A stretch of DNA of 64,000 nucleotides from NCBI GenBank assembly GCA_049304015.1, contig JBAQNS010000016.1:143-64142 (forward strand). The letters are read 5' to 3'. Shown piece after piece: positions 29,891 to 54,216 of the stretch. Position 1 is the first letter of the stretch. Each line of letters starts with the position of its first letter. This DNA comes from Minisyncoccia bacterium. GTDB taxonomy: Bacteria > Patescibacteriota > Minisyncoccia > Phycocordibacterales > Zambryskibacteraceae. The translations under genes were made by a program, and so were the position numbers. The notes below the pieces were generated by a model. The model did no database searches, had not been told where the DNA came from, and saw only the letters and a program-made list of their open reading frames with translations.

Positions 29891-31024
29891 ATGCGCAAGA
29901 TAAGATGGTTGCTGGGAGCGTTGGTGCTCGTCACTGCGTGTCAGCCTGACCGCTTGATCAGCATCAAGATCGACGACAGTTCGAGTCATCCTGGCTCAGG
30001 AACTGTGTTGGTCACCGGGGTGACCGTCACCTCGTCGCCGAACATCACTCTGTCGATCGGGGTGTCGTGCACAAACACGACGTCTCAGATTGTCGTCGCA
30101 GTTGCTCCGGCAAATGCGACGAACACCGCCGTCAGCTACACTGTCACGAGCCACGGCTCAGTGATGGTTAGCTCGACTGGTCTCGTCACCGCTCTCAAGG
30201 CGGGGACGGACACGGTGTACGTGACTTCGGTCGCTGACGCTTCGAAGAAGGCGTTCGTGGTAGTGACGGTGTCTGGCACCTCGTGTGCTTCAACGCCGGC
30301 TTGTCCGAACGGCTTCAGTTCTTGCAGTGGTGCACGATGGAGCGATGCGGGGATGACTCCGCAGGACACAACGTACACCTTCAGCCACAAGCGGCACGTG
30401 AAGGGTCTCACTTACATCCCGAGTGGTGTGAGTACCGAGATTCTTGTGCGTTCCGCGCTGGGTTGTGAGGCTGCGGCCAGCACGCCGCAAGTCATCGCGA
30501 CATCGTTGGCGAACGTCTATGCGGTGGATGTGGAGCTGCAGGCAATCAATATCTGCAGCGACAGTACGGTCTTCAAGTTGAAGGCCGACTCGACGCAGAA
30601 GAAGGCGGTCCATGTGACCGTTGTCTCTGCTCCGGGTTCTGTCCGGCTCAATCCTCCGACGACAATCGGAGGTGTGGGTGCCACTGGCAAGTACACCTGC
30701 ACAGTGAGTGGTTTGGCGGACTTGCGTTGCTGGTTCTATTCTACCAATCCGTTGGTAGTGTCCATCGTTCAGAAGGACACTACGTACACCGCTGCCACGT
30801 TCCCGTGGCCGGCAGGTGCAAACATCGGTGGTACGTACAAGAACCTCAGCGCTGGATCTGCGGGTATCTGCACCTTCAGTCCGAGCAATCCGGCCATCGC
30901 GGATTGCAAGAATCATGTAGTGTCGTCTGGCTCTGCCTTGATGGCCGGCTCGGGTCTCATGGCTCAAGCCGAACTTCAGGAATGGGCAGTGCCTGAGGTT
31001 CTAAGGGTTCTCACAAAACCCTAG
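29891..31024 (+). CDS. Lipoprotein with bacterial Ig-like (BIG2) domain; GC-rich gene
   Basis: Lipobox LVTAC. BIG2-like repeat (VTGVTVTSSPNITLSIG...TVYVTSVAD). Strong RBS caGGAGGt. Terminator at 31037-31070. Confidence 0.6.
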   Translation: MRKIRWLLGALVLVTACQPDRLISIKIDDSSSHPGSGTVLVTGVTVTSSPNITLSIGVSCTNTTSQIVVAVAPANATNTAVSYTVTSHGSVMVSSTGLVTALKAGTDTVYVTSVADASKKAFVVVTVSGTSCASTPACPNGFSSCSGARWSDAGMTPQDTTYTFSHKRHVKGLTYIPSGVSTEILVRSALGCEAAASTPQVIATSLANVYAVDVELQAINICSDSTVFKLKADSTQKKAVHVTVVSAPGSVRLNPPTTIGGVGATGKYTCTVSGLADLRCWFYSTNPLVVSIVQKDTTYTAATFPWPAGANIGGTYKNLSAGSAGICTFSPSNPAIADCKNHVVSSGSALMAGSGLMAQAELQEWAVPEVLRVLTKP

Positions 31025-32143: not shown

Positions 32144-32293
32144 CGGCTAATTATAGCCACGAAACAAGCTTGACAATTTGTCTAGTGTATGCTATCTTAG
32201 CTGGCAGACTCTAAATGTCGATCTTTGACATTAAGTTTATCTACTATCATCCCGTATCACCACGCAGTAAAACCAAAGGAGGTTTAAGTATGT

Positions 32294-32569
32294 ATGCCTA
32301 GCAAAGGCGAAGCGACAACTCTGAAGGCGGTGGTACAAAAGGTCGTCGATGGCAAACACGGCTGCTATGCAGTTGCCACTTCAAGCAAAATTGAAGGATC
32401 CATTACGTTTTCGTTGGATCCGGACGTTTGGCAAGAAAAGGCAAAACCCCAAGAGGGTTACGAGGTTGTCCTTGGCGATATCAGGAAGAAGTCCGCTGGA
32501 TGGCGGGCCCATTCCGCACGTTTCCTGAGGCCTGAAGATAAGGTCTCCAACAGCAGCAAAAAGCACTGA
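32294..32569 (+). CDS. Small hypothetical protein, first gene of the GC-rich operon
   Basis: 91 aa. Preceded by promoter TTGACA(32170)-17-tgcTATCTT and RBS AAGGAGG. Confidence 0.4.
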   Translation: MPSKGEATTLKAVVQKVVDGKHGCYAVATSSKIEGSITFSLDPDVWQEKAKPQEGYEVVLGDIRKKSAGWRAHSARFLRPEDKVSNSSKKH

Positions 32570-32582
32570 GCAAGGAGCCAAC

Positions 32583-33218
32583 ATGGCCGGAAGAATCAAA
32601 CAGTTTCTTGTTGATCAGAAATTGATCACAGGAGACGGTACACAATCTGGAAGCGCAGTGAAAGCTGCGCCGACACAGACTGCAAGTGTCGCCTCGATGC
32701 CACGCCCTGTGGCTACGGTGGGTGTAGCCGACACTGAATACGTCGGTGCCCTCCGTGAAGCGATGACGAAGTCAACAGTGAATGGATTTCAGGAATTCCA
32801 AGATCAACTCGGAATCTTTGAATCCGTTCCTGGAATGGACGAACCGATGCGTTTCCGCACTGCTATCACAGCTCTCTCAAAGAGCTCTGGTATCAAGCGG
32901 GATCAAATCGTGAAGGCCTCCGAAGATCGTCTTCGGATTCTGGTCGCGGCGCGCGATGAATTCGCCCACACGATCGAGGAGCGTCGTAACCGAGAACTCG
33001 GCAGCAATGAGGCTGACTTGTCAGCCACTCGCGCCGAGATCGATACGAAGCGCAAGGAAATCCAGGAGCTTGAAGGCAAGCTCCAGCAACTCGAAGTCAA
33101 GAAGCAAACGATCAACCAGAAGCTCACAGCTGCAAGCACTGCTTTCGGCAATGCTTATGCGGTTGTGGAAGCGGAGGTCAGATCGTTTGTCTCGAAGCTC
33201 ACGCAGTATCTCACCTAG
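32583..33218 (+). CDS. Soluble coiled-coil protein (PspA/TelA-like guess, weak)
   Basis: 211 aa. C-terminal half is heptad-like (RAEIDTKRKEIQELEGKLQQLEVKKQ). GC-rich. Confidence 0.4.
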   Translation: MAGRIKQFLVDQKLITGDGTQSGSAVKAAPTQTASVASMPRPVATVGVADTEYVGALREAMTKSTVNGFQEFQDQLGIFESVPGMDEPMRFRTAITALSKSSGIKRDQIVKASEDRLRILVAARDEFAHTIEERRNRELGSNEADLSATRAEIDTKRKEIQELEGKLQQLEVKKQTINQKLTAASTAFGNAYAVVEAEVRSFVSKLTQYLT

Positions 33219-33238
33219 CAACCAGCAAGGAGTATCAC

Positions 33239-34291
33239 ATGAGTGAAGTCCCAGCTGTTCAAGTTCCTCTTCCCCTGAAAAATTGGGTGAAGGGAACGAA
33301 CGGTGCCATGGCAGTTCTGAGTCTCGGTGCTGGTGCGATGATCGCCTACCTGGCGCTCCCCACCATCATCACGCTCCTCACGAATACTGCCATCGCTCTT
33401 GGTTGGCTCGTGGTTGTCGGTGCCATCGTTGGCGCCGGCTTCCTGATTCTGCCCATCATCTTTCACCTGTGGCCGAAGATTCGGTACCAGCAGAAGGTGT
33501 GGGCACTCGCTATCGCTGAACAGATGGTCAAACGTGACCCTGTTCGGTGGTCGCAGATCTACATTGATGACCTCAAGAAGAAGGCGCAAGCCCTTCTTGG
33601 TGCCATCACTCAGGCAGTCAAGTCTCTGATGACGGCAAAGCGCAAGCGCGATGAGAACATCAAGCTTCGCGACGATGCTCGAGCGAAGGCCCAGGCCGCT
33701 TACAAGGCGGGCAACCAGGCCGAGGCTGTTCGGTGGGAACGCGCTGCCAAGCGCAAGGATGACGCCATCGCTCGTTCAGAGCGTTGGATTCAGATGCTCG
33801 AACTCATCGTTCGCGCTCTGAAGAAGCTGAGTTCAACCCTCGAGACCCGCATTGCGGATCAGGAGGATGAGCTCAAGTCCTACATCGACGAGTACGAGAC
33901 GGCTCAGCAGGTTGAACCCGGCATTCGTGCCGGCATGAATGCGTTGGCTCCCGATGAAGACCTGCGTCACATCAAGGAGTCGGCTATCAAGGAAATGACA
34001 TCCAAGGCTGATGGCATGTACGCCGAACTTGAGATGACGATGGAGGCTTTCCAGCCTATCATCTCTGCTCAGGATCTCGACGATGCCGCGGCATTCGAAA
34101 GGATGTCGAAGGCGTTTGCCCAGTGGGAAAAGGGCGTCGATTCGACGCTCCTCGGCCCTGGTGGCAAGCAGCAGCTCATCGCTGAAACGCTCGACCCGAT
34201 GAATATCCTCAAGATCGAGGGTCCGCGTGGCGAGAAGATCCCTGTGGTCAAGGGAACGAGGGGAAGTTTCGACGATTTGATCGACCGGTAG
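33239..34291 (+). CDS. Membrane-anchored coiled-coil protein (2 TM helices plus long helical domain; PspA/IM30-like guess, weak)
   Basis: Two N-terminal TM helices, then about 250 aa of charged, Ala-rich helical sequence (EAVRWERAAKRKDDAIARSE...). Confidence 0.4.
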   Translation: MSEVPAVQVPLPLKNWVKGTNGAMAVLSLGAGAMIAYLALPTIITLLTNTAIALGWLVVVGAIVGAGFLILPIIFHLWPKIRYQQKVWALAIAEQMVKRDPVRWSQIYIDDLKKKAQALLGAITQAVKSLMTAKRKRDENIKLRDDARAKAQAAYKAGNQAEAVRWERAAKRKDDAIARSERWIQMLELIVRALKKLSSTLETRIADQEDELKSYIDEYETAQQVEPGIRAGMNALAPDEDLRHIKESAIKEMTSKADGMYAELEMTMEAFQPIISAQDLDDAAAFERMSKAFAQWEKGVDSTLLGPGGKQQLIAETLDPMNILKIEGPRGEKIPVVKGTRGSFDDLIDR

Positions 34292-34344
34292 TAGATAGAC
34301 ACATAGCGAAGTTAAGCATCCACAGCAAACACAGGAGCAACACA

Positions 34345-35907
34345 ATGCAGTTCAACAACCGAAGGGGTTCAATCACCTTCAAGGGTGCGATGATCATGGC
34401 CGCATTCGGCTTCATCATCCTCGCCATCATCGGCTTCTTCGTCTACAAGACGGGTGGAGCCAGCAGGGTTTCCAGTGCCTTGAGCGACAGCCGCAACGGC
34501 ACGCTCTCGAGCAAGGAGAAGAACAAGGTCATCCACGTCTGCGTCGTCACCTGGGGTGGCTACGCCGGCGGGCAGTATTTCAACGGCGGCTTCGAAGCGA
34601 CGAAGGATTCGCGGTTCTACAAGGACTACGGCATCCTCGTTGACTTCCCGGTCATCGACAACTTCGATGCATCGCGCAAGTCGTATCAGTCGGGGGAGTG
34701 CAATCTCCTCTGGCAGACGGCCGATGCGTTCTCGACGGAAGTCGGGAACCTGCAGAAGGCTGGTTTTGACCCGCGTGTGCTGTTCCAGTCCGACTGGTCT
34801 CGCGGTGGTGACCTCGTTGTCGCCAAGCGTGGGATCAACTCGGTGAACGATCTGCGAGGGAAGACTGTCGCGGTGGGCTACGGCACACCGTCGCACACCT
34901 TCCTTCTTCGGATGCTCGAAGCCGCCGGCATGTCGGTCAACGACGTGAAGATCGTGCAGGTTCCGAGTGCTGTCGATGCGGCCACGGCTTTCAAGTCTGG
35001 CCAGGTCGATGCGGCAATCGTTTGGTCACCCGATGACCAGGATTGCCTCAAGACCATCCCGGGTTCCAAGATTCTCACTTCGACGCGTGAAGCGACTCAC
35101 ATCATCGCCGATATTTTCTTCGGTGAACAGAAGTGGGCCGATGAACACAAGAAGGAGTTGGATGGACTCGAGGAAGGGTGGTTCAAGGGTGCTGCGGAAG
35201 TAAACACGAATCCCGAAGCTTTTGAGCAGGCGGTCAAGATTTTGGCCGTTGGTCTCAAGCAGCCCGAGGATTTCATGCGTACTGCCATCCGCAACGCCCG
35301 ACTCAGTACGTACGGGGACAACGTGAACTTCTTCAACCTCAATGGCAACGCCACTGGGGTGACGGGAGAGAAGTTGTACCTCGAGACAGGCCGGCTGTTC
35401 CAGGCGAGCACCGATCTCGTGAGTTCGCTCCCTCCGTGGCGCGAAATTACGAACCTCGACGCCCTGCGCTCCATCTCCCTCAAGGGGCCGGAGAACGCAG
35501 CTGAAGCTGAGGAACGGTATACGGTTGCTTCGGCGTCGGAGCGGAGAGCGGAAGCGCTTTCTGTGAAGCCGTTGCCGATCAACTTCGAGACGGGTTCGGC
35601 GACTCTCTCTGAGAACGCCAAGTCCTTGCTCGATCTCTTCGTGCCCACGCTCAATTCCTACAAGAATCGTGTGCGCATCGAAGGGAATACCGACAACAGC
35701 GGTTCTGCTGATGTGAATCGTCGGCTGTCGCTCGCTCGCGCGCGCGCAGCTCGCGATTATTTCGTCAACGAGTACCATTTCGATGTCAACAGGTTCATCG
35801 TCGAGGGCAACGGGCCGGATAAGCCCGTCGCCACGAACGATACGCCTGAGGGCATGGCGAAGAATCGTCGGTCGGAGTTCCAGCTCATTGGGAATCCGAT
35901 CAAGTAG
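34345..35907 (+). CDS. Fusion protein: TM anchor, NitT/TauT(SsuA/NMT1)-type ABC substrate-binding domain, and C-terminal OmpA-like domain
   Basis: N-terminal TM helix. SBP-like core. C-terminal OmpA_C signature NTDNSGSADVNRRLSLARARAARDYF...NRRSEF. Confidence 0.6.
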   Translation: MQFNNRRGSITFKGAMIMAAFGFIILAIIGFFVYKTGGASRVSSALSDSRNGTLSSKEKNKVIHVCVVTWGGYAGGQYFNGGFEATKDSRFYKDYGILVDFPVIDNFDASRKSYQSGECNLLWQTADAFSTEVGNLQKAGFDPRVLFQSDWSRGGDLVVAKRGINSVNDLRGKTVAVGYGTPSHTFLLRMLEAAGMSVNDVKIVQVPSAVDAATAFKSGQVDAAIVWSPDDQDCLKTIPGSKILTSTREATHIIADIFFGEQKWADEHKKELDGLEEGWFKGAAEVNTNPEAFEQAVKILAVGLKQPEDFMRTAIRNARLSTYGDNVNFFNLNGNATGVTGEKLYLETGRLFQASTDLVSSLPPWREITNLDALRSISLKGPENAAEAEERYTVASASERRAEALSVKPLPINFETGSATLSENAKSLLDLFVPTLNSYKNRVRIEGNTDNSGSADVNRRLSLARARAARDYFVNEYHFDVNRFIVEGNGPDKPVATNDTPEGMAKNRRSEFQLIGNPIK

Positions 35908-35996
35908 TTCTTTCTGTACTACACTCCGTAGTACGAGGGGTAGGGCTCTCGTAGTCCTACCCCTTTTTTCTCAAGAGCAGAAAAAGGAGTAAAGCA

Positions 35997-36794
35997 ATGA
36001 GCATTGTCCTGAGGAGCAGACCAAGCTACAAAAGGGCAGTTATTGTCCAAGTAGTAGCTTATGGATTGTTTCTTTTTGGATGGTGGCTCGTAACTGCCGG
36101 GCTTGGATACATCAAACCCGGCATTCTGCCATCACCCACGAGTGTGATTACCTCGTTCATTGCACTGCCGATGACTCGGGAGTTTTGGTTGAGCATGCGT
36201 TTCTCGCTCCTCATTACCATAGTGAGTAGCATTGAAGCTCTTTGCATCACCATACCTCTCGGTCTACTCATCGGTTTGCATCCGGACGCGCGAGCAATTT
36301 TCGAGAAGCCACTTGCGGCCCTGAGGTACCTACCTCTGACCGCACTTCTCGGAGTGTTCATGACTTGGTTTGGCTACAAGGTGAACATGAAGGTTCAGTT
36401 CTTGACCCTCAGCATCCTCGTTTATTTTCTGCCAGCATTCGTGGCTCGAATAGACGCGGTGACGACTGGTCACCTGAACACCATCAAGACACTAGGGGCC
36501 AACAATTGGCAAACGATCAAGAAGGTCTACTGGCCTTCAACGATCGGTCAATTCTTCACCGACATGCGTGTGCTGTCTCCGATTGGATGGACCTACATCA
36601 TTCTGGCTGAAACCATCAATCTCAACGATGGTGGCATTGGTCAGATGATTTTCTCTGCCAGCCGGAGGAGCCACATCGACGTCGCGTTTGCACTTCTGTT
36701 GCACATTGTCTGCATTGCGTTCATTCAAGACAAGGTGCTCATGTTTGCAGACAAAAAAATCTTCCCGTACAAGTACGTGGGAGGTGATCGATGA
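35997..36794 (+). CDS. ABC transporter permease (NitT/TauT family)
   Basis: 265 aa, 6 TM helices, with an EAA-like loop. Confidence 0.65.
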   Translation: MSIVLRSRPSYKRAVIVQVVAYGLFLFGWWLVTAGLGYIKPGILPSPTSVITSFIALPMTREFWLSMRFSLLITIVSSIEALCITIPLGLLIGLHPDARAIFEKPLAALRYLPLTALLGVFMTWFGYKVNMKVQFLTLSILVYFLPAFVARIDAVTTGHLNTIKTLGANNWQTIKKVYWPSTIGQFFTDMRVLSPIGWTYIILAETINLNDGGIGQMIFSASRRSHIDVAFALLLHIVCIAFIQDKVLMFADKKIFPYKYVGGDR

Positions 36795-37618
36795 TTACCA
36801 ACATTCCGTTCTTCGATGATCCCAACAAGGCGAACATCGTGGAGCTCAAGAACATTCGTCAGGCATATCCAACGCCAGACGGTAAGGAAGTGGTGGTCAT
36901 CGACGGGTTGAACCTCTTGATTGAGGACATCCCGAACCAAGGACAGTTCATTTCTCTCCTTGGGAAGTCCGGGTGTGGCAAGTCTACGGTCCTCAATTAC
37001 ATTGCGGGACTGCAGACTCCCACCAGTGGGGAGATTCTTCTCCACGGAGTTCCCAAGAAGGAGTCGGACGTCGTTGGGATGGTGTTCCAGCAGTACTCAT
37101 CCTTCGAATGGATGTCAGTACTCGAAAACGTCATGCTACCTCTCGAATTCAAGGGCGTGCCCAAGAAGGAGAGCAGGGAGCGTGCCATGGCCATGATTGC
37201 GGAGGTCGGCCTTTCGGGGCACGAGCACAAGTATGCTCAGACACCGACGCTTTCAGGTGGTCAACTCCAGCGAGTCGCAATTGCTCGGAGTCTCGTTTCA
37301 AATCCGGACATCATCCTCATGGATGAGCCGTTCGGCGCACTCGATGCCGTCACGAGGCATCAGATTCAGATTCTGCTCGCGAAGCTCTGGGAGACCTACC
37401 AGTCGACCGTGATCTTCGTGACGCACTCTGAATCAGAGGCGGTGTTTCTTTCGGATCAGATCATGATCATGGCTCCCAATCCAGGGAGAATCATTCGTGA
37501 GATCAAGGTCGACCTGCCGTTCCACCGTGACAAGTCCACCAAGAGGACACCTCGCTTCACAGAACTTGTTCGTGAAGTAGAGGATTCTCTGGAGTTCTCA
37601 ATCACTGCGAACGGATAG
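36791..37618 (+). CDS. ABC transporter ATP-binding protein (NitT/TauT family)
   Basis: Walker A GKSGCGKST, signature LSGGQLQRVAIAR, Walker B ILMDEPFGALD. 4-nt overlap with the permease. Terminator at 37661-37693. Confidence 0.8.
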   Translation: MITNIPFFDDPNKANIVELKNIRQAYPTPDGKEVVVIDGLNLLIEDIPNQGQFISLLGKSGCGKSTVLNYIAGLQTPTSGEILLHGVPKKESDVVGMVFQQYSSFEWMSVLENVMLPLEFKGVPKKESRERAMAMIAEVGLSGHEHKYAQTPTLSGGQLQRVAIARSLVSNPDIILMDEPFGALDAVTRHQIQILLAKLWETYQSTVIFVTHSESEAVFLSDQIMIMAPNPGRIIREIKVDLPFHRDKSTKRTPRFTELVREVEDSLEFSITANG

Positions 37619-37755
37619 CTCTTTCTACTCTTGGGCAACCTCGAGTTTTGTACATTTTCAGCCGCATATTCGAAAGGGTATGCGGTTTTTTCTTTATCTA
37701 AAATTCTATAAACATTGACATTCAATGGCTAAATTGCTATAGTAATGCCAAGATT

Positions 37756-49334: not shown

Positions 49335-50822
49335 ATGGCCTCCATCGAAGAAATCCAAGAAGCACGCTTAGGCAAGCTTCAATTATTAAAGGATAAAGGC
49401 ATTAATCCTTATCCAATTGTTTCTCACCAAGACTTTACTAATCTAGTCGCAGTCGAAGATTTTGATTCGATTTCTTCTTCAGGAAAATCTATTTTTATGG
49501 TGGGGAGAATTTTGTCTCTCCGTGCTCAGGGCAAAATTATTTTCATCACCTTTGATGATGGGACGAGTAAGTTTCAAGCGCTTTTAAAATCTGGAGAACC
49601 TCTCCCAGAAGAGACATTTGATTTATTTGAACAAGCATTCGACATAGGCGATTTTGTGGAGATAAAGGGAACATTATTCAAGACTAAAAGAGATGAGAAA
49701 ACTATCCTCGCTGAAGATGTGCAGATGCTCTCTAAGTCTCTCCGCCCTCTACCCGAGAAATGGAGTGGTCTACAGGATCCAGAAGAAAGATTTAGAAAAA
49801 GATATTTAGACATAATTTCAAATCCAGAACTCAGAGCAGTTTTCCAAAGGAAAGCCAAGTTCTGGAACACCATTCGAGAGTATATGCTTTCAAAGAATTT
49901 CCTAGAAGTTGAAACTCCTGTTTTGGAGAACACTACTGGTGGAGCAGAAGCGCGTCCATTTATTACTCACCACAATGCTCTTGATATAGATGTTTATCTC
50001 CGTATTTCAGCTGGAGAGCTATGGCAGAAAAAGTTATTGGTAGCTGGTTTCCCTAGGACTTTTGAGATAGGAAGAATTTTTAGAAATGAAGGTATCTCTA
50101 ATGAGCACCTTCAGGACTACACTCAACTAGAATACTACATGGCTTATGCTGATTATGAGGAAGGTATGAAGATGACCAAGGAGCTCTACAGATTAATCGC
50201 TGACAAAGTTTTTGGCACCACCAAATTCACTATTAGAGGTATGGAAGTTGATTTGGCCAAAGAATGGGAAGTCTATGATTTTTGTACTGTTATTAAAGAA
50301 AAATTTGATATAAATCCACTAAATACAACAGAGCAAGAAGTTTTGGCCGTTTTGGATAAAAATAATATAGAGAGAGAAAAAGACACAAACATAGAGAGGG
50401 GAATCGATTTGCTTTGGAAGAGTTTAAGGAAGACTATCGCTGGTCCAGGATTCCTCATAGGTGTGCCAGTATCAATGGAGCCTCTAGCCAAGAAAAACAG
50501 AAATAATTCAAACACTGTAGAAAGGTTTCAAGTCATCCTTGCTGGTAGTGAGATGGGTAAGGGCTTTAGTGAATTGAATGACCCTGTTGATCAAAAAGAA
50601 AGATTTATGAACCAGCAAGCCAAACGTGATGCAGGAGATGATGAAGCGCAGATGGCAGATATGGAATACGTTGAAGCACTAGAGTATGCGATGCCTCCAG
50701 CATTTGGTTTCGGACTTTCAGAAAGATTGTTTAGTTTCCTTATGGACATGTCAGTACGAGAGACACAACTTTTTCCTCTAATGAGGCCTAAAAATAAAGG
50801 AAATTCTGAAATTGACAAATAG
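49335..50822 (+). CDS. lysS: Lysyl-tRNA synthetase (class II)
   Basis: OB anticodon-binding domain plus class II core (FRNEGIS, GGAEARPF). Confidence 0.85.
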   Translation: MASIEEIQEARLGKLQLLKDKGINPYPIVSHQDFTNLVAVEDFDSISSSGKSIFMVGRILSLRAQGKIIFITFDDGTSKFQALLKSGEPLPEETFDLFEQAFDIGDFVEIKGTLFKTKRDEKTILAEDVQMLSKSLRPLPEKWSGLQDPEERFRKRYLDIISNPELRAVFQRKAKFWNTIREYMLSKNFLEVETPVLENTTGGAEARPFITHHNALDIDVYLRISAGELWQKKLLVAGFPRTFEIGRIFRNEGISNEHLQDYTQLEYYMAYADYEEGMKMTKELYRLIADKVFGTTKFTIRGMEVDLAKEWEVYDFCTVIKEKFDINPLNTTEQEVLAVLDKNNIEREKDTNIERGIDLLWKSLRKTIAGPGFLIGVPVSMEPLAKKNRNNSNTVERFQVILAGSEMGKGFSELNDPVDQKERFMNQQAKRDAGDDEAQMADMEYVEALEYAMPPAFGFGLSERLFSFLMDMSVRETQLFPLMRPKNKGNSEIDK

Positions 50823-50901
50823 GGTAGTTGTGTGCTATAATAGAAAAAGATAACGCTCTTGGACAAACTTGTCCGAACAACACTTTTGCCCGAGGAGGGC
50901 A

Positions 50902-51547
50902 TGTGAACATTCAAAACACTTTCTTCATGCTCATCGCGCTACTCGTACCGCTTGCGGTCGAGGCGCAGAAGGACACCACGAAATTCGAGCCGTATACGTT
51001 TGTCTGGCTAGAAGGTCAGGCAGCCGTGCCGAAGTCTGAACTTGGACTGAAGAAGCCGGTGATTCAACAGAGTGTCTCAACACTCACGTTCGGTCACCAA
51101 GCTTCACAAGGAGTCGGTGTGGTCGCCACTCTGGCTCATGCTAACACTCTCGACTCCGAGGCATGGAACGAAGTGACTCTGACTTGGTCCGTCGCGACGA
51201 AGTCTGGACTGTCAGTTTCTGCTGGTCCGGCTATCGAACAAGTGGGCAAGGTCTACCACAATCGCGGTCGTGTGAATTTCTTCTATGACCATGAGGCGAG
51301 TGCGAGCTTCCTCTACGGTCAGCTCGACGCTGGTCAGGGTACGAGTTGGTGGTGGGTCGACGGCGCCATTTTCATTAAGAAGTTTGTTGGAGTTGGCGTG
51401 CTTGCCCAGATGCCTGACCTTGGTGTTGGCCCGAAGCTTGAACTTCGAATGGGGAATCACGTTTCCATTTGGGGGGCGGGACTTCGTCAGCCAGATACCA
51501 AGGTTGAGTACGGGGTCTTCGGACTCCGACTCAAGTACGACAAGTAG
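50902..51547 (+). CDS. Secreted beta-strand-rich protein (possible beta-barrel), GC-rich; GTG start
   Basis: Signal peptide MNIQNTFFMLIALLVPLAVEA/QK. Alternating hydrophobic/Gly-rich segments. C-terminus ...YGVFGLRLKYDK. Promoter TTGACA-18-tgcTATAAT at 50808-50844. Tandem hairpin terminator at 51548-51603. Confidence 0.45.
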
Positions 51548-51717
51548 TGACCAACACTCGGTGTTGGTCAAGGCGCATACCATCCAGGTATGCGCTATTT
51601 TCATATATTTATAGGGTTAAATTAAAGCTTGACAAATTATATATAATTTGCTATAGTATGTTTAGTTTAGATGTACATTCCACGAGGCATAGGCCTCACT
51701 ACTACGAGGTACACGCA

Positions 51718-52359
51718 ATGCGCAAGCACGCACTGATGTTCGTCCTACTCGCGGTTCTGCTGCCGGTTGACCTCTTCGGTCAGAACCGCATCAGTTCGGT
51801 GAGTCTCGGCTCCGGCCAGGACGCCATCTCGAGCGGCATGACCGGTATCCTCCGGTTCGAGTCGAAGGACAAGAAGCTCTTCGGCGAATTCGCTGCTCAG
51901 CATGAGCAGGCGTGGTTCGCTATCGGGCGGCAGCTCAACGGTCGAGTCAGTGGCTTCGTTGCCGGTGACGTCGGACATTTCCAGGGTGCGCCCTGGTATG
52001 GTCCGTACGTCTCACTCTCGACTCCGCTCTTGAAGATCGGGAACAAGGATCTCTCCATTAGCACTCTGCAGTGGCCCGCGATCTTCGTCTCCAACCCTTC
52101 GAGCAAGACCGGTCAGAAGCTCAACGGGTTCATCGAGCACGTGGGCTATCTGTCCTCGTTCAGCCTGACGCTCGGTCCGGTGTCCTTGAACCATGCGATG
52201 CTCCACTTCCTGAACGATCCCTGGAATTCGCTTCCGGGTGCGTCGATCACACTGCCCATCACGGGTGAGGTGAGCGGAACGACTTCGTACACTCGCAACG
52301 TGAACGGGAAGTTCGACATGTACTTCATGGGAGTCAGCTGGACTCCGTCGAGTAAGTAG
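51718..52359 (+). CDS. Secreted beta-strand-rich protein (possible beta-barrel), GC-rich
   Basis: Signal peptide MRKHALMFVLLAVLLPVDLFG/Q. Promoter AAGCTTGACAA-17-tgcTATAGT at 51623-51660. Terminator at 52371-52415. Confidence 0.45.
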   Translation: MRKHALMFVLLAVLLPVDLFGQNRISSVSLGSGQDAISSGMTGILRFESKDKKLFGEFAAQHEQAWFAIGRQLNGRVSGFVAGDVGHFQGAPWYGPYVSLSTPLLKIGNKDLSISTLQWPAIFVSNPSSKTGQKLNGFIEHVGYLSSFSLTLGPVSLNHAMLHFLNDPWNSLPGASITLPITGEVSGTTSYTRNVNGKFDMYFMGVSWTPSSK

Positions 52360-52447
52360 TTCTGCTTCCTAGCCCCACAGATTAGCTTCGGCTTCTGTCG
52401 GGGCTTTTCTGTTTCAAAATTCCGATACAAAAATGGGGGAATGACAA

Positions 52448-52522
52448 GTGGAAAAGTGGATAACTAAGGTAGTAGAGTGGATGCATGTGGGATACAATAT
52501 CTATCAGGTGGGAGAAAGTGGG
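52448..52522 (+). promoter_or_regulatory. Array of six GTGG(G/A) direct repeats at about 10-bp spacing upstream of mraZ (putative MraZ operator)
   Basis: GTGGA at 52448 and 52456, GTGGA at 52477, GTGGG at 52487, 52508 and 52518. The mraZ ATG is at 52546. Confidence 0.5.
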
Positions 52523-52545
52523 AAATTTAATATTTGTTATTTAAC

Positions 52546-52980
52546 ATGTTCATTGGCGAATACACACATACAGTCGATGAGAAAAAAAGAATCTCATTAC
52601 CATCCAAGTTCAAAAAAGAACTTGGAGACAAAGTGGTAGTCACCAGAGGACTTGATAACTGTCTTTTCCTTTTCACTCACAAATCGTGGACAATCATTTC
52701 TAAGGAAGTGGGCAAGCTCGACATGAAGCAAGCAGATGCCAGAGGATTCGCTCGCTTTATGTTTGGAGGGGCGCTCGAGATAGATGTGGATTCTATGGGT
52801 CGCATACTCATCCCAGATTATTTGAAAGAGTTTGCAGACCTCAAGAGTCCCGTCGTCTTCGCTGGCCTCAATGACCGAATCGAAATCTGGAATGAGAAGC
52901 GTTGGAAGGAATACAATAAACGCATTGAATCCGAAGTCGAAGGTTTAGCCGAAAAGCTCAGCAACATAGGAGTGAGATAA
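52546..52980 (+). CDS. mraZ: Transcriptional regulator MraZ
   Basis: MFIGEYTHTVDEKKRISLP and a second DxxxR half. The ORF-track TTG start was moved to the ATG. Confidence 0.85.
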   Translation: MFIGEYTHTVDEKKRISLPSKFKKELGDKVVVTRGLDNCLFLFTHKSWTIISKEVGKLDMKQADARGFARFMFGGALEIDVDSMGRILIPDYLKEFADLKSPVVFAGLNDRIEIWNEKRWKEYNKRIESEVEGLAEKLSNIGVR

Positions 52981-52981
52981 T

Positions 52982-53872
52982 ATGGCCCACATTTCAGTTC
53001 TTTTACATGAATCAGTAGAAAATCTAGACCTTAAAGAAGGAGAAATTTTTCTTGATGGCACTCTTGGTGCAGGTGGCCACTCGGCCCTTGTAGCAAAAAC
53101 ACTCGGAGAAGATGTAGAGATTATTGGTCTTGATAGAGATCCTGAAGCAATAAAAAGAAGTGAGGAGAGATTGCGGACTCTCACCACTAATGCATATCTG
53201 CGTAATGAAAGCTTTAGGAATCTTGATCAAGTTTTGTTTTCTCTAGGTGTCTCTGGTGTTGATGCAATCCTCTTTGACCTTGGTATTTCGTCCGATCAGC
53301 TCGATGCAGAAGGTAGAGGATTTTCCTTTCAGAGAGATGAACCACTAGACATGTCTATGTCTAAGGATAGTAAGGGCTTTAATGCAAAGGTGATTCTAAA
53401 CACTTTTGATGAAGAAGCACTAGAGCTGATCCTTCGTGGCTTCGGAGAAGAAAAATTCTCTCGTCGTATAGCCAAGGAAATCATCCAAAGAAGGGAGACA
53501 AAGCCATTTGAGACTACGTTTGAACTAGTAGAAGCGGTACGCGCTGCCACGCCATCCGTCTACCATCGCGGGAAACTCCACCCTGCGACACGTACGTTTC
53601 AAGCCTTACGCATTGCCACCAACGAAGAATTAACTGCCCTAGAAGAAGGTTTAGAGAAAGGTTTCGAGCATCTAAACGTTGGTGGAAGGTTTGTGGTCAT
53701 CTCATTTCACAGTCTAGAGGACAGGATAGTCAAACAATTTTTCAAGAAAGTTGTTGATGAGGAGAGAGCCAAGATGATTACAAAAAAACCAATTGAACCA
53801 ACTCTCATGGAGATAAAAGAGAACCCACGTTCTAGGAGTGCCAAATTAAGAGTGATAGAAAAAATTATTTAA
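52982..53872 (+). CDS. rsmH: 16S rRNA (cytosine1402-N4)-methyltransferase RsmH
   Basis: HISVLLHE..DGTLGAGGHS and FHSLEDRIVK. Confidence 0.85.
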   Translation: MAHISVLLHESVENLDLKEGEIFLDGTLGAGGHSALVAKTLGEDVEIIGLDRDPEAIKRSEERLRTLTTNAYLRNESFRNLDQVLFSLGVSGVDAILFDLGISSDQLDAEGRGFSFQRDEPLDMSMSKDSKGFNAKVILNTFDEEALELILRGFGEEKFSRRIAKEIIQRRETKPFETTFELVEAVRAATPSVYHRGKLHPATRTFQALRIATNEELTALEEGLEKGFEHLNVGGRFVVISFHSLEDRIVKQFFKKVVDEERAKMITKKPIEPTLMEIKENPRSRSAKLRVIEKII

Positions 53873-53877
53873 TAAGA

Positions 53878-54216
53878 ATGTACATTACAAAAACACTTTC
53901 ATACGATACCCGCGCAAGAGCCTTTTGGACCCTTGTAGTTTTGTCCATTCTATCTTTGGTGGTTTATATTTTTGCCATTAATGCCACCATCAGAAACACT
54001 GTCACCAGACAGAATTTAGAGAACGAAGTAGCTACCATTTCTACTCAACTTGGAGATTTAGAATTTTCATACATCGCTTTAAAAAATAGAGTTTCTTTGG
54101 ATTTGGCTTATACTCGAGGGTTCAAAAATGTTTCCTCAGCACAATATATATCAAGAGGAGAGTCTAGATCTTTGACTATGAATGTAACCTCTCTATCTGG
54201 CACAATAAGTAGATAA
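53878..54216 (+). CDS. ftsL: FtsL-like small bitopic division protein
   Basis: 112 aa with a single TM helix. Sits between rsmH and ftsI. Confidence 0.45.
   Translation: MYITKTLSYDTRARAFWTLVVLSILSLVVYIFAINATIRNTVTRQNLENEVATISTQLGDLEFSYIALKNRVSLDLAYTRGFKNVSSAQYISRGESRSLTMNVTSLSGTISR

Follow-up and report, generated by a model that had tools for sequence, protein, structure and literature searches.

A six-gene operon of a Minisyncoccia genome encodes an ABC importer, its binding protein with a predicted wall anchor, and a candidate PspA-like membrane protein

PspA, Vipp1 and ESCRT-III proteins are ancient machines for membrane repair and remodeling. The 64-kb stretch of DNA analyzed here (the window) derives from a small CPR (Minisyncoccia) genome and carries six genes, P1 to P6, in which transporter components follow proteins with long coiled coils. 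Does this locus encode an ordinary nutrient importer, or does it link solute uptake to maintenance of the membrane? An earlier, sequence-only reading had favored an envelope-stress or membrane-remodeling function, and had considered the architecture of its binding protein to be uncommon.

Organization of the operon and its transporter

All six open reading frames of that reading are present in one orientation and at the sizes it gave (Table 1). Its promoter at TTGACA (position 32170) and its terminator were also recovered as a promoter-like site and a terminator-like hairpin, which are consensus matches only. Such scans are weak evidence because 14 promoter-like sites were found in the region where 7.9 were expected. 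The leader has no match to an Rfam family, and no riboswitch was found. The intergenic gaps from P1 through P6 are 13, 20, 53, 89 and -4 nt, the last reflecting a 4-nt overlap of the P6 start with the P5 stop.

Table 1. Features of the operon, numbered by position in the window (aa, residues of the protein concerned)
Feature	Position	Strand	Basis
Promoter candidate, sigma-70-like, TTGACA-17-TATCTT with TG extension	32170-32198	+	10/12 consensus match
Leader, ~90 nt, with GGAGG (32278-32282) 11 nt 5' of the P1 ATG	32199-32293	+	sequence
Six open reading frames, P1-P6	32294-37618	all +	ORF list
P1, 91 aa, accessory first gene	32294-32569	+	ORF; position conserved in CPR-type cassettes
P2, 211 aa, predicted soluble cytoplasmic coiled-coil protein	32583-33218	+	family synteny, AF2 model, conservation profile
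P3, 350 aa, membrane protein	33239-34291	+	hydropathy, family profiles, AF2, Foldseek
P3 N-terminal two-TM hairpin, aa ~26-75 (TMs ~26-44, ~57-75)	33314-33463	+	hydropathy
P3 helical domain, probably PspA/ESCRT-III-like and cytoplasmic, aa ~95-305	33521-34153	+	profiles, model
P4, 520 aa, SBP-OmpA fusion	34345-35907	+	HMM, hydropathy
P4 TM anchor, aa 15-33	34387-34443	+	hydropathy
P4 NMT1/SsuA-type binding domain, aa ~62-385	34528-35499	+	HMM
P4 OmpA-like predicted peptidoglycan-binding domain, aa 414-508	35584-35868	+	HMM
P4-P5 gap, G+C-rich hairpin (13 bp) then T-run (hairpin and T-run 35935-35965)	35935-35971	+	hairpin scan, folding energy
P5, 265 aa, type-I ABC importer permease, TauC/SsuC/SaoP-like	35997-36794	+	HMM, motif
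P6, 275 aa, ABC ATPase	36791-37618	+	HMM, motifs
Terminator-like hairpin (12 bp) with T-run, operon end (stem-loop 37660-37687)	37660-37697	+	hairpin scan

The gap between P4 and P5 holds a hairpin followed by a T-run that was absent from the sequence-only reading. Its predicted folding energy is -22.7 kcal/mol versus -11.0 +/- 2.8 kcal/mol for shuffled sequences, wherein none of 200 shuffles is as strong. Of the 44 related loci in which P4 and P5 are separated by 20 nt or more, 32 have a hairpin of -12 kcal/mol or stronger, a count that covers those loci alone, without a control set. The structure is a candidate partial terminator or mRNA-stabilizing element.

The operon had also been described as GC-rich, which agrees with GC3 values of 0.55 to 0.75 across P1 to P6 versus 0.30 to 0.40 for the flanking genes. 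The genes that flank the cassette are housekeeping genes, and defense-island neighbors do not recur. The fact that the GC3 anomaly is confined to the source genome and its close relatives suggests that this copy was acquired horizontally. Among 73 loci, the GC content of the cassette agrees with that of its host in 70. A sister lineage holds the cassette at the same chromosomal site, consistent with stable inheritance across two diverged lineages.

P4 had been read as a TM anchor joined to an NMT1/SsuA domain and an OmpA-like domain, and profile searches bear out each part. The OmpA-like domain (PF00691; 8.8e-20, 71.3 bits versus a cutoff of 27.2) carries the motifs NTDNSG, LSLARA and NRR, and its best matches are Acinetobacter baumannii Omp38 (3td3; 3.5e-17) and YiaD. 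Residues D450 and R465, which correspond to the peptidoglycan-contact Asp and Arg, are invariant in the family alignment (A1). The binding domain matches NMT1 over residues 159 to 291 (8.2e-12, 45.9 bits versus a cutoff of 20.5) as well as NMT1_2 (31.7 bits versus 24.7), and its closest solved proteins are distant SsuA, TauA and NrtA-like proteins. Three K/R residues precede the TM segment, and the phage protein family phrog_25518 matches P4 over its full length. Judged by its sequence, P4 is the binding protein of the P5/P6 importer and is fixed at both ends, by the membrane and by a predicted peptidoglycan anchor.

The permease and ATPase assignments also stand. P5 matches BPD_transp_1 (46 bits versus a cutoff of 26.4) and has an EAA-like coupling loop (TLGANNWQTIKKVYWP), and P6 matches ABC_tran (105.7 bits) with Walker A (GKSGCGKS), LSGGQ, Walker B (IILMDEP) and H-loop (VTH) motifs all intact. 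By domain and motif content, P5 and P6 constitute a NitT/TauT-class type-I ABC importer whose catalytic motifs are intact. The best NCBIfam matches of the transporter genes are SsuA_fam, TauC, SaoP, SaoA and TauB-like, but assignment to a subfamily of characterized substrate, for example taurine, sulfonate or nitrate, was rejected, as every equivalog or subfamily model scores far below its cutoff. Specifically, P4 reaches 84.5 bits versus 163.5 for SsuA_fam (despite 7e-24), P5 reaches 88.8 versus 342 for TauC, and P6 reaches 197.6 versus 360 for SaoA and 196 versus 357 for TauB. Thus, a substrate is not transferable from the known families.

The coiled-coil proteins and the accessory gene

Both P2 and P3 had been proposed to be PspA/IM30-like, which proves plausible for P3 and is not upheld for P2. 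P3 has the two predicted TM helices previously noted, with six K/R residues just after the second. A search of the P3 protein of the window against the PspA, TelA and LemA profiles gives no match at E <= 0.1. Within its family of 48 members, PspA_IM30 is the top Pfam family and is matched by 22 at E <= 0.01 (best 4e-07), with scores of 16.8 to 24.8 bits, none of which reaches the gathering score of 33.9 bits. By comparison, the equally coiled-coil P2 family matches PspA_IM30 in only 2 of 51 members.

Moreover, the P3 matches keep a constant register, wherein residue ~95 of the protein corresponds to profile position ~22, and a near-invariant DP lies where PspA carries EDP. The P3 profile finds Vipp1/PspA chains among PDB sequences in that same register, but with E = 1.5-10, and an hhalign comparison with the single E. 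coli PspA sequence was negative. The AF2 model is poor overall (pLDDT 54), with a pLDDT of 72-94 in the hairpin, and it exhibits a long alpha1/alpha2-3 helical hairpin followed by the shorter helices alpha4 and alpha5, as is characteristic of PspA. In Foldseek searches with this model, Vipp1/PspA structures rank first and make up 11 of the 14 top matches, and the superposition on 4whe spans 117 columns at 1.5 A, although some of this similarity may be that of long helical hairpins in general. A P3 homologue of 52% identity is named "phage shock protein A" by JGI. The helical domain is therefore likely to be a cytoplasmic, distant homologue of PspA/ESCRT-III. The amphipathic helix alpha0 is not at the N terminus of P3, where the two-TM hairpin is found instead. 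Short conserved motifs are present at both termini, including one in the C-terminal tail.

Judged by eye, the P3 segment between TM2 and the DP (VWALAIAEQMVKRDP) has a loose likeness to the last part of alpha0 in E. coli PspA (NINALLEKAEDP).

P2 comprises a conserved N-terminal KxLF peptide, a disordered linker, a small three-helix domain and a helix of ~105 residues. Its family lies immediately 5' of P3 in 78 loci, and the window protein is 21% identical to a Bacteroidales copy over the full length. A PspA/Vipp1/ESCRT-III-like identity for P2 was rejected on several counts. The two PspA_IM30 matches in its family occur amid generic coiled-coil noise, and hhalign gives a probability of 1.1% against E. 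coli PspA and of 13%, over 18 columns, against the P3 family, neither of which indicates similarity. The single-sequence AF2 model contains the three-helix domain and one ~105-residue helix in which a hairpin is absent, and PspA/Vipp1 are not among its Foldseek matches (best E-value 1.2).

P1 has no match in Pfam, NCBIfam, PADLOC or PHROG searches. Homologues with the conserved motif GxYAV..GSITFSL..DVW..GWRA..AR occupy the equivalent position only at loci L001-L004, L011, L075, L007/L008 and L095/L096, which marks P1 as a CPR-restricted, lineage-specific extra gene ahead of the remaining five, as far as homologue searches identify it.

Distribution and possible functions of the cassette

Contrary to the earlier supposition, the SBP-OmpA architecture is not uncommon: its homologues number at least 2,594, at least 527 species genomes encode it, and it already bears an NCBI product name as well as a PHROG family. 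The conserved unit consists of the five genes P2-P3-P4-P5-P6, which occur in this order in 48 loci and, together with P1, in five more; most remaining loci are cut by contig ends. Hence, of the six-gene order drawn from the window, the P2-P6 part is widespread and the P1 part is CPR-only. Most carriers are Bacteroidota, including the cultured Tenacibaculum finnmarkense, Aquimarina, Lacihabitans, Aureisphaera and Draconibacterium, and others belong to CPR lineages and further phyla. The upstream gene pair of the Bacteroidales cassettes, like that of a 6.4-Mb genome, consists of true homologues of P2 and P3. Phage genomes also carry the cassette in full, both those of Lak-A and Lak-B megaphages (15 Lak megaphage records) and that of a 735-kb phage, copies for which no mention was found in searchable papers. 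Literature searches found no experimental work on any member of the cassette, and cassettes of this kind have so far been described only computationally.

Some loci have P2-P3-P4 without an adjacent recognizable permease and ATPase, and a few have P4-P5-P6 without P2-P3, demonstrating that the two halves are separable. In 19 Bacteroidota loci of ~80, the cassette is followed by a gene for a ~634-aa two-domain AAA+ protein (one inactive and one classical domain). An HMM made from these 19 proteins has no match in the 64-kb window, in CPR-type loci or in megaphage loci, wherein +/-7-8 kb was covered around each locus other than the window.

The conservation of the P2-P3-P4-P5-P6 order across phyla and megaphages suggests that P2 and P3 are functionally tied to the transporter, as the sequence-only reading had assumed, and from this synteny we infer a coupling that may be physical or functional. 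We consider it somewhat probable that horizontal transfer brought in the operon as one copy of a widespread, mobile five-gene envelope module, with the lineage-specific P1 added, that couples uptake to membrane maintenance. P3 would polymerize at the inner face of the membrane, beside or around the transporter, with P2 as its coiled-coil partner docking via the short conserved terminal peptides. The hairpin 3' of P4 would probably yield more P1-P4 transcript than permease/ATPase transcript. Uptake of a small solute at the wall-anchored site would thereby be coupled with local stabilization or remodeling of the membrane, and the module would therefore serve to maintain the envelope instead of simply importing a nutrient. 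In many Bacteroidota the adjoining AAA+ protein would recycle the polymer, whereas the copy in the window would work without one.

The principal alternative is a plain NitT/TauT-class importer of a nutrient (such as sulfonate, taurine, nitrate, bicarbonate or a pyrimidine precursor), for which P2 and P3 would serve passively, as scaffolds or assembly factors, to place P4 and would not remodel the membrane. The identity of the best transporter-family matches, the nearest solved binding proteins, the intact catalytic motifs and the few loci without P2-P3 all fit this possibility, as does the position of the hairpin, since ordinary ABC importer operons typically have a hairpin just after the gene for the binding protein. 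However, the matches to characterized transporters are far under their cutoffs, P2-P3 are kept with P4 across phyla and megaphages, an AAA+ protein of the PspA-associated type is attached in 19 loci, and P3 carries PspA/ESCRT-III signals. We consequently regard this alternative as unlikely.

A second alternative is that P4 reads a ligand or the mechanical state at the peptidoglycan and that ATP hydrolysis by P5/P6 drives assembly or disassembly of a P3 polymer, much as force is transduced by FtsEX and similar ABC systems, with the ABC ATPase replacing AAA+ where the latter is absent. The double fixation of P4, the restriction of AAA+ to a minority of loci that excludes the window, CPR-type and phage copies, and the short terminal motifs of P3, which suit partner docking, are consistent with such a sensor, and how AAA+-less PspA homologues have their assembly regulated is a stated open question (Ravi et al. 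2024, PMC11237479). Against it, P5 belongs to BPD_transp_1, a family of type-I importers whose known activity, to our knowledge, is import and does not extend to mechanotransmission, AAA+ could sit elsewhere in the genome beyond the neighborhoods covered, and a contact between P3 and P5/P6 is only postulated. We judge it quite improbable. A related and still more doubtful proposal is that in AAA+-less cassettes, such as this CPR copy and those of megaphages, the ABC transporter powers or gates an anchored ESCRT-III-like polymer at the peptidoglycan-tethered site, and that Lak-type megaphages carry the whole module so that the host envelope stays intact, or is supplied, over a long infection cycle.

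No known anti-phage system was recognized, as PADLOC matches are generic rather than system-specific (ZorB via the OmpA-like domain, 8.9e-10; mad3 and other ATPases via the ABC fold; and weak coiled-coil matches to LmuB/PbeC). A phage-related conflict module (anti-phage defense, superinfection exclusion or a takeover function derived from phages) whose cellular copies were transferred from phages would agree with the megaphage copies, the full-length PHROG match of P4 and the compositional island in the source genome, but it is highly improbable given those generic matches, the host-like GC content of nearly all loci, the housekeeping flanks without recurrent defense neighbors and the stable inheritance at one chromosomal site.

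Under the envelope-module reading, the cassette hard-wires a probably PspA-like protein to an ABC importer whose binding protein is predicted to be tethered to the wall. A connection of transport with membrane maintenance can be tested because at least 527 species carry the cassette, including cultured Bacteroidota in which genetics may work. If true, a phage-borne "phage shock"-type module that brings along a transporter would stand out among auxiliary functions, and an ABC-driven polymer would mean that bacterial ESCRT-III/PspA systems can be driven in a way not known before. The window itself is of modest value, as an instance of the module having moved into a small CPR genome and having persisted there at a single site while lineages diverged.

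Comparison with known systems

The closest precedent is a comparative genomics study that described operons of PspA/Snf7, AAA+, ABC and "PBPB+OmpA" genes, exemplified by OGG56892.1 of Candidatus Handelsmanbacteria, and proposed a tie between membrane remodeling and the transport of solutes, in which OmpA would bind peptidoglycan (Ravi et al. 2024, mSystems, PMC11237479). The idea of envelope-stress-linked uptake is reasonable but, given this precedent, not new. As in that operon, a gene for a TM-anchored protein, probably of the ESCRT-III superfamily, sits in one operon with ABC transporter genes (ATPase and permease) and an SBP+OmpA gene, and the corresponding two-domain AAA+ gene adjoins the cassette in the 19 Bacteroidota loci. 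We infer that P3 is the equivalent of the "TM+Snf7" protein. The order there is PspA, SBP-OmpA, permease, ATPase, TM+Snf7, AAA+, whereas here it is P1, P2, P3, SBP-OmpA, permease, ATPase. The 64-kb window also differs in being without AAA+ and without a separate recognizable soluble PspA, and in having P1 added.

With the classical Psp, Lia and Vipp1 systems, P3 shares the long alpha1-alpha2/3 hairpin, the shorter helices that follow and a DP at the start of helix 1. Membrane recruitment is a common theme. LiaI anchors LiaH, for example, whereas P3 is anchored by its own two TMs, rather than by an amphipathic alpha0 or a separate anchor protein. P3 further differs in being sub-threshold in Pfam, in lacking PspB, PspC, PspF and LiaFSR partners and in its link to a transporter.

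Features shared with NitT/TauT importers (TauABC, SsuABC, NrtABCD/CmpABCD and SaoABP) are the NMT1/SsuA-type domain, the BPD_transp_1 permease with its EAA-like loop and the ATPase, which matches SaoA and TauB best. What sets the operon apart from these importers is the presence of P2 and P3, together with the TM anchor and the C-terminal OmpA-like domain of P4. P4 retains the TDxxG...LSxxRA...NRR signature of OmpA-like anchors (MotB/PomB, YiaD, TssL and Pal) and resembles MotB in combining an N-terminal TM anchor with a C-terminal predicted peptidoglycan binder. It departs from these anchors in that its middle segment is a complete solute-binding protein rather than a plug or linker.

Gene content and expression signals of the cassette

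The six cassette ORFs (P1 to P6, in 5′ to 3′ order) lie on the + strand with the sizes assigned to them by the sequence-only reading, whose coordinates for the operon are accurate, and they are tightly packed, with successive intergenic gaps of 13, 20, 53, 89, and −4 nt. P1 is a small conserved protein for which no family match was found in Pfam, NCBIfam, PADLOC, or PHROG, and a GGAGG sequence is located 11 nt ahead of its start codon. A promoter-like site precedes the operon, where the promoter scan, which yielded 14 sites versus 7.9 expected, is weak evidence when taken alone. Searches of the leader for known RNAs or riboswitches gave no match at E ≤ 1 in the window, and nine related loci were likewise negative.

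The sequence-only reading overlooked a hairpin in the gap between P4 and P5. Its folding energy is −22.7 kcal/mol, compared with −11.0 ± 2.8 kcal/mol for shuffled sequences, and this value was reached by none of 200 shuffles. Of the 44 loci in which this gap measures at least 20 nt, 32 have a hairpin there with a folding energy of −12 kcal/mol or lower, a count made without a shuffle control for these loci. The best promoter-like site of the scanned region (37715–37743, + strand; TTGACA, 17 nt, TATAGT, 11/12, with a TG extension) lies between the cassette terminator and a DEAD-box helicase gene. This arrangement is what would be expected if the cassette were transcribed as a unit of its own, inserted among housekeeping genes.

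The domains previously proposed for the transporter proteins are confirmed by HMM scans. P4 carries an OmpA domain (71.3 bits, cutoff 27.2, amino acids 414–508) and a binding domain that matches NMT1, NMT1_2, and SsuA_fam, the permease P5 matches BPD_transp_1, and the ATPase P6 matches ABC_tran and has its Walker A, LSGGQ, Walker B, and H-loop motifs intact. Hydropathy identifies one transmembrane segment in P4 (amino acids 15–33), and the charge distribution, by the positive-inside rule, suggests that the binding and OmpA-like domains are outside the cell. The nearest solved binding proteins, all of them distant, are the Xanthomonas SsuA-like protein 3e4r (2e-10), Escherichia coli SsuA (2x26), and TauA (6ssy).

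Positions of cassette features in the window and in related loci (L handles)
Feature	Positions	Strand	Details
P1	32294-32569	+	ORF, 91 aa
P2	32583-33218	+	ORF, 211 aa
P3	33239-34291	+	ORF, 350 aa
P4	34345-35907	+	ORF, 520 aa
P5	35997-36794	+	ORF, 265 aa
P6	36791-37618	+	ORF, 275 aa
Promoter-like site	32170-32198	+	TTGACA, 17 nt, TATCTT, TG extension; 10/12 consensus match
Hairpin, P4-P5 gap	35935-35965	+	13 bp, G+C-rich, with T-run; hairpin scan
Terminator-like hairpin, cassette end	37660-37687	+	with T-run; hairpin scan
Sister-lineage cassette	L095 843-6138; L096 4142-7722		compared with window 32294-37618
AAA+ gene (~634 aa)	L028 10269-12197; L063 10196-12103; L071 10305-12209; L083 10993-12897		directly 3′ of cassette
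P2-like gene	L018 5888-6685; L034 2326-3135; L086 6119-6934		variant without detected P3
Phage cassettes	L093 5227-12595; L094 5289-11655; L092 5817-11575		Lak-B5, MK250024.1; Lak-A1, MK250016.1; LR756501.1, 735 kb

Comparison of P3 and P2 with PspA and ESCRT-III proteins

Both P2 and P3 had been described from the sequence as PspA/IM30-like coiled-coil proteins. Scans of the window's own proteins for PspA, TelA, and LemA gave no match, the window's P3 has no Pfam match, and coiled-coil noise was all that P1 to P3 produced when scanned against Pfam, NCBIfam, PADLOC, and PHROG. At the level of the protein family, no Pfam family matches P3 members as often as PspA_IM30, which is hit by 22 of 48 of them (E ≤ 0.01; best E-value 4e-07), with the runner-up family matching 8 members. 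The P2 family, which is also coiled-coil, provides an internal control, wherein 2 of 51 members match PspA_IM30. The matches of the P3 family score under the cutoff (16.8–24.8 bits versus 33.9) and fall in one register, such that residue ~95 corresponds to profile position ~22 and the alignment reaches position ~190. The same register was obtained when the P3 profile was aligned with Vipp1/PspA chains (E = 1.5–10), and a near-invariant DP of P3 (P101; 'VKRDPVRWSQIYIDDL') occurs at the position of 'AEDPQKLVRLMIQEM' in E. coli PspA. Alignment of the P3 profile with the single E. coli PspA sequence by hhalign was negative. Among plasmid-borne pspA matches, 441 of 468 are enterobacterial copies of 90–95% identity, which is too uniform for a diverse PspA profile.

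P3 has two transmembrane segments by hydropathy, and its charge distribution, by the positive-inside rule, points to a cytoplasmic location for the helical domain. An exhaustive profile search defines P3 as a discrete family. It has 696 representatives at E ≤ 1e-3, of which 276 also pass E ≤ 1e-10, and almost all of them are 330 to 380 amino acids long. This family is too divergent for a word-index search, which therefore recovered only three proteins with the single sequence and five with a 48-sequence profile. As a result, P3 was modeled by AF2 from a 5-sequence alignment and P2 from a single sequence. The P3 model (mean pLDDT 54) contains a confident helical hairpin (H101–156/H160–233, pLDDT 72–94) followed by helices H240–276 and H283–305. 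Vipp1/PspA structures account for 11 of the 14 top Foldseek matches in the PDB, with E-values of 5e-3 to 0.1, and the model superimposes on 4whe at 1.5 Å over 117 columns. In addition, a homologue that is 52% identical to P3 is named 'phage shock protein A' by JGI. Collectively, these observations make it likely that P3 belongs to the ESCRT-III superfamily, and the proposed PspA likeness is plausible for P3 at the family level.

The same proposal is not supported for P2, as nothing ties this protein to PspA or to P3, and an hhalign comparison of the P2 profile with the single E. coli PspA sequence was negative or uninformative. In the P2 model (pLDDT 71), a short helix at the N-terminus (amino acids 4–11) is followed by a disordered linker (12–50), three short helices (51–102), and a single helix (106–210). 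Conservation in the family peaks at an N-terminal KxLF peptide and at a 'GxDYLEF' core. P2 and P3 are not recognizable as paralogues (hhalign probability 13% over 18 columns). The PspAA domain described by Ravi et al. (2024, mSystems, PMC11237479) in their comparative genomics of PspA/Snf7 operons was rejected as an identity for P2 because PspAA contains a four-stranded β-sheet. The same authors show a Salinibacter 'coiled-coil' gene between PspA and TM+Snf7, and P2 may be equivalent to it.

Distribution, variants, and acquisition of the cassette

Fusion of a substrate-binding domain to an OmpA domain had been considered uncommon. Our search with P4 contradicts this claim, since at least 2,594 proteins match at E ≤ 1e-3 among 8,000 candidates scored, a relative is encoded in at least 527 species-representative genomes, and phrog_25518 covers P4 over its full length (3.8e-47). 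The top 120 relatives are all of ~495–554 amino acids and have the OmpA + NMT1 architecture in common. They are named 'phosphate ABC transporter substrate-binding/OmpA family protein' by NCBI and 'NitT/TauT family transport system substrate-binding protein' by JGI. The majority of the genomes listed with a P4 relative belong to Bacteroidota, among them the cultured Aquimarina, Tenacibaculum finnmarkense, Aureisphaera, Lacihabitans, and Draconibacterium. Relatives also occur in CPR lineages (Paceibacterota, Peribacteraceae, Saccharibacteria) and in Fibrobacteria, Chlorobiota, Caldithrix, Geobacter, and Thiotrichaceae.

In a Bacteroidales MAG and in a 6.4-Mb genome, P4 is preceded by true homologues of P2 and P3, with 21–24% identity over nearly their full length (E 3e-10 to 2e-15). 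When HMMs were iterated over 90 loci, the order P2-P3-P4-P5-P6 was found in 48 loci and in five more with P1 ahead, and most of the remaining loci are interrupted by contig ends. Thus, the composition and synteny of a five-gene unit are established, and P1 is confined to the CPR-type subset. Among the variants, some Saprospiraceae and Chitinophagales loci carry P2-P3-P4 and then other genes, and in five loci (L017, L041 with a UbiD-like gene, L050, L059, L082) the genes after P2-P3-P4 are unrelated or lack a Pfam match. In three loci, a P2-like gene (~265–271 amino acids) directly precedes P4 where P3 is undetected. Separately, L054 (165–674) and 12 other Flavobacteriia/Saprospiraceae-type loci encode a ~167-aa protein ahead of P2 and in the direction of the cassette. 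This protein has zero Pfam matches in the 13 loci, and could be a further lineage-specific component, like P1 in CPR lineages. A complete P1-P6 cassette is also present in L075 (JAUSIT010000016.1, 4774–~11000), which is labelled Nanoarchaeota archaeon. Two explanations are considered for this locus, namely mis-binning of a CPR contig and transfer into a DPANN archaeon, in which a peptidoglycan-binding OmpA-like domain would be unexpected.

A tblastn search with P4 matched 35 of 50,697 phage records, including 15 Prevotella Lak megaphage genomes (~540–550 kb) and two records of a 735-kb uncultured phage, both groups with ~34% identity over 83–90% of the query. The homologue lies at consistent positions in all 15 Lak records. 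P2-P3-P4-P5-P6 is present with its order unchanged in three of three phage loci scanned with the cassette HMMs (E 1e-31 to 1e-143), whether the loci are translated with genetic code 11 or 15, and Pfam confirmed OmpA + NMT1_2, BPD_transp_1, and ABC_tran in these copies. We found no mention of the cassette in Lak or huge phages in the searchable literature on Lak phages and transporters or on megaphages and PspA. The pspA-like gene reported for Jug phages adjoins terD, a context that differs from that of the cassette.

The window derives from a Minisyncoccia (CPR/Patescibacteria) MAG, GCA_049287265.1. Its cassette genes have a GC3 of 0.55–0.75, compared with 0.30–0.40 in the flanking housekeeping genes. 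Across 73 related loci, cassette GC exceeds that of the flanks by a median of 1.2 points, and an excess of more than 8 points is seen only in the window genome and its close relatives (+12.7 to +14.7). In a sister lineage, the cassette occupies the identical site, where RNase T and DEAD-box helicase genes flank it, and it shows the same GC3 excess. Its P4 protein is 85% identical to that of the window, the cassettes share 76–90% nucleotide identity, and the DEAD-box helicase and holB genes share ~78%. The common site and GC3 excess therefore indicate that the cassette, including P1, was acquired horizontally before the two lineages split, and the extent of their divergence indicates that the foreign composition has persisted without amelioration.

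A second compositional island lies just upstream, where a gene (29891–31024, + strand) for a putative lipoprotein of 377 amino acids that contains a Big_2 domain has a GC content of 57.8% and a GC3 of 0.685 versus ~0.30–0.40 in the adjacent genes. Between this gene and the cassette are two housekeeping genes of low GC content, and a ~370-aa counterpart is found at the equivalent position in the sister lineage (L096). GC is also raised at 50001–54000 (0.45–0.47 versus a background of ~0.40).

A putative envelope-maintenance module and its published relatives

On balance, we favor the interpretation that the cassette is an envelope-maintenance module. It would comprise a type-I ABC importer whose binding protein is fixed to membrane and peptidoglycan alike, coupled on the cytoplasmic face to a membrane-anchored, PspA/ESCRT-III-like polymer of P3 with P2 as its coiled-coil partner. 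The hairpin after P4 would set the stoichiometry of the upstream genes relative to the permease and ATPase. Polymerization of P3, its coupling to the transporter, and a role in stress are what we infer from these components.

A plain nutrient importer, with P2 and P3 as scaffold proteins, is an unlikely alternative reading of the same genes. In its favor, P4-P5-P6 occurs without P2 or P3 in three loci (L051, L062, L074); against it, every substrate-specific NCBIfam model scores far under its cutoff on the cassette transporter. Somewhat less plausible still is that the cassette senses the state of the wall and acts as a motor, with the ABC ATPase driving the polymer. A phage-conflict module is very improbable, and PADLOC gives no specific support to a defence-system reading.

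The sequence-only reading, which proposed an uptake module linked to envelope stress or membrane remodelling, is partly right. The theme is not new, because Ravi et al. (PMC11237479) suggest that solute transport and membrane remodelling are linked and list (Table S3) an operon of Candidatus Handelsmanbacteria with PspA, PBPB+OmpA, permease, ABC-ATPase, TM+Snf7, and AAA+; both the cassette theme and the functional idea are thus already published as computational inference. We found no experimental work on the cassette in the searchable literature, and nothing on it under the NCBI product name of the P4 relatives. The common architecture and the prior hypothesis reduce the interest of the cassette, which is favored by the existence of cultured carriers, the complete copies in megaphage genomes, and the computational nature of the literature.

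Neighbour clustering revealed a further parallel with the published operons. In 19 Bacteroidota loci, the cassette is directly followed by a co-directional gene for a ~634-aa protein, which has classical AAA and AAA_lid_6 domains in its C-terminal half and an N-terminal half without an assigned domain. These features fit the partner that Ravi et al. describe, an 'inactive AAA + classical AAA' protein. An HMM built from the 19 proteins has no match in the 64 kb of the window and none in the CPR-type or megaphage loci. The window cassette is therefore an AAA+-less form, with P1 added, of a kind so far described only computationally.
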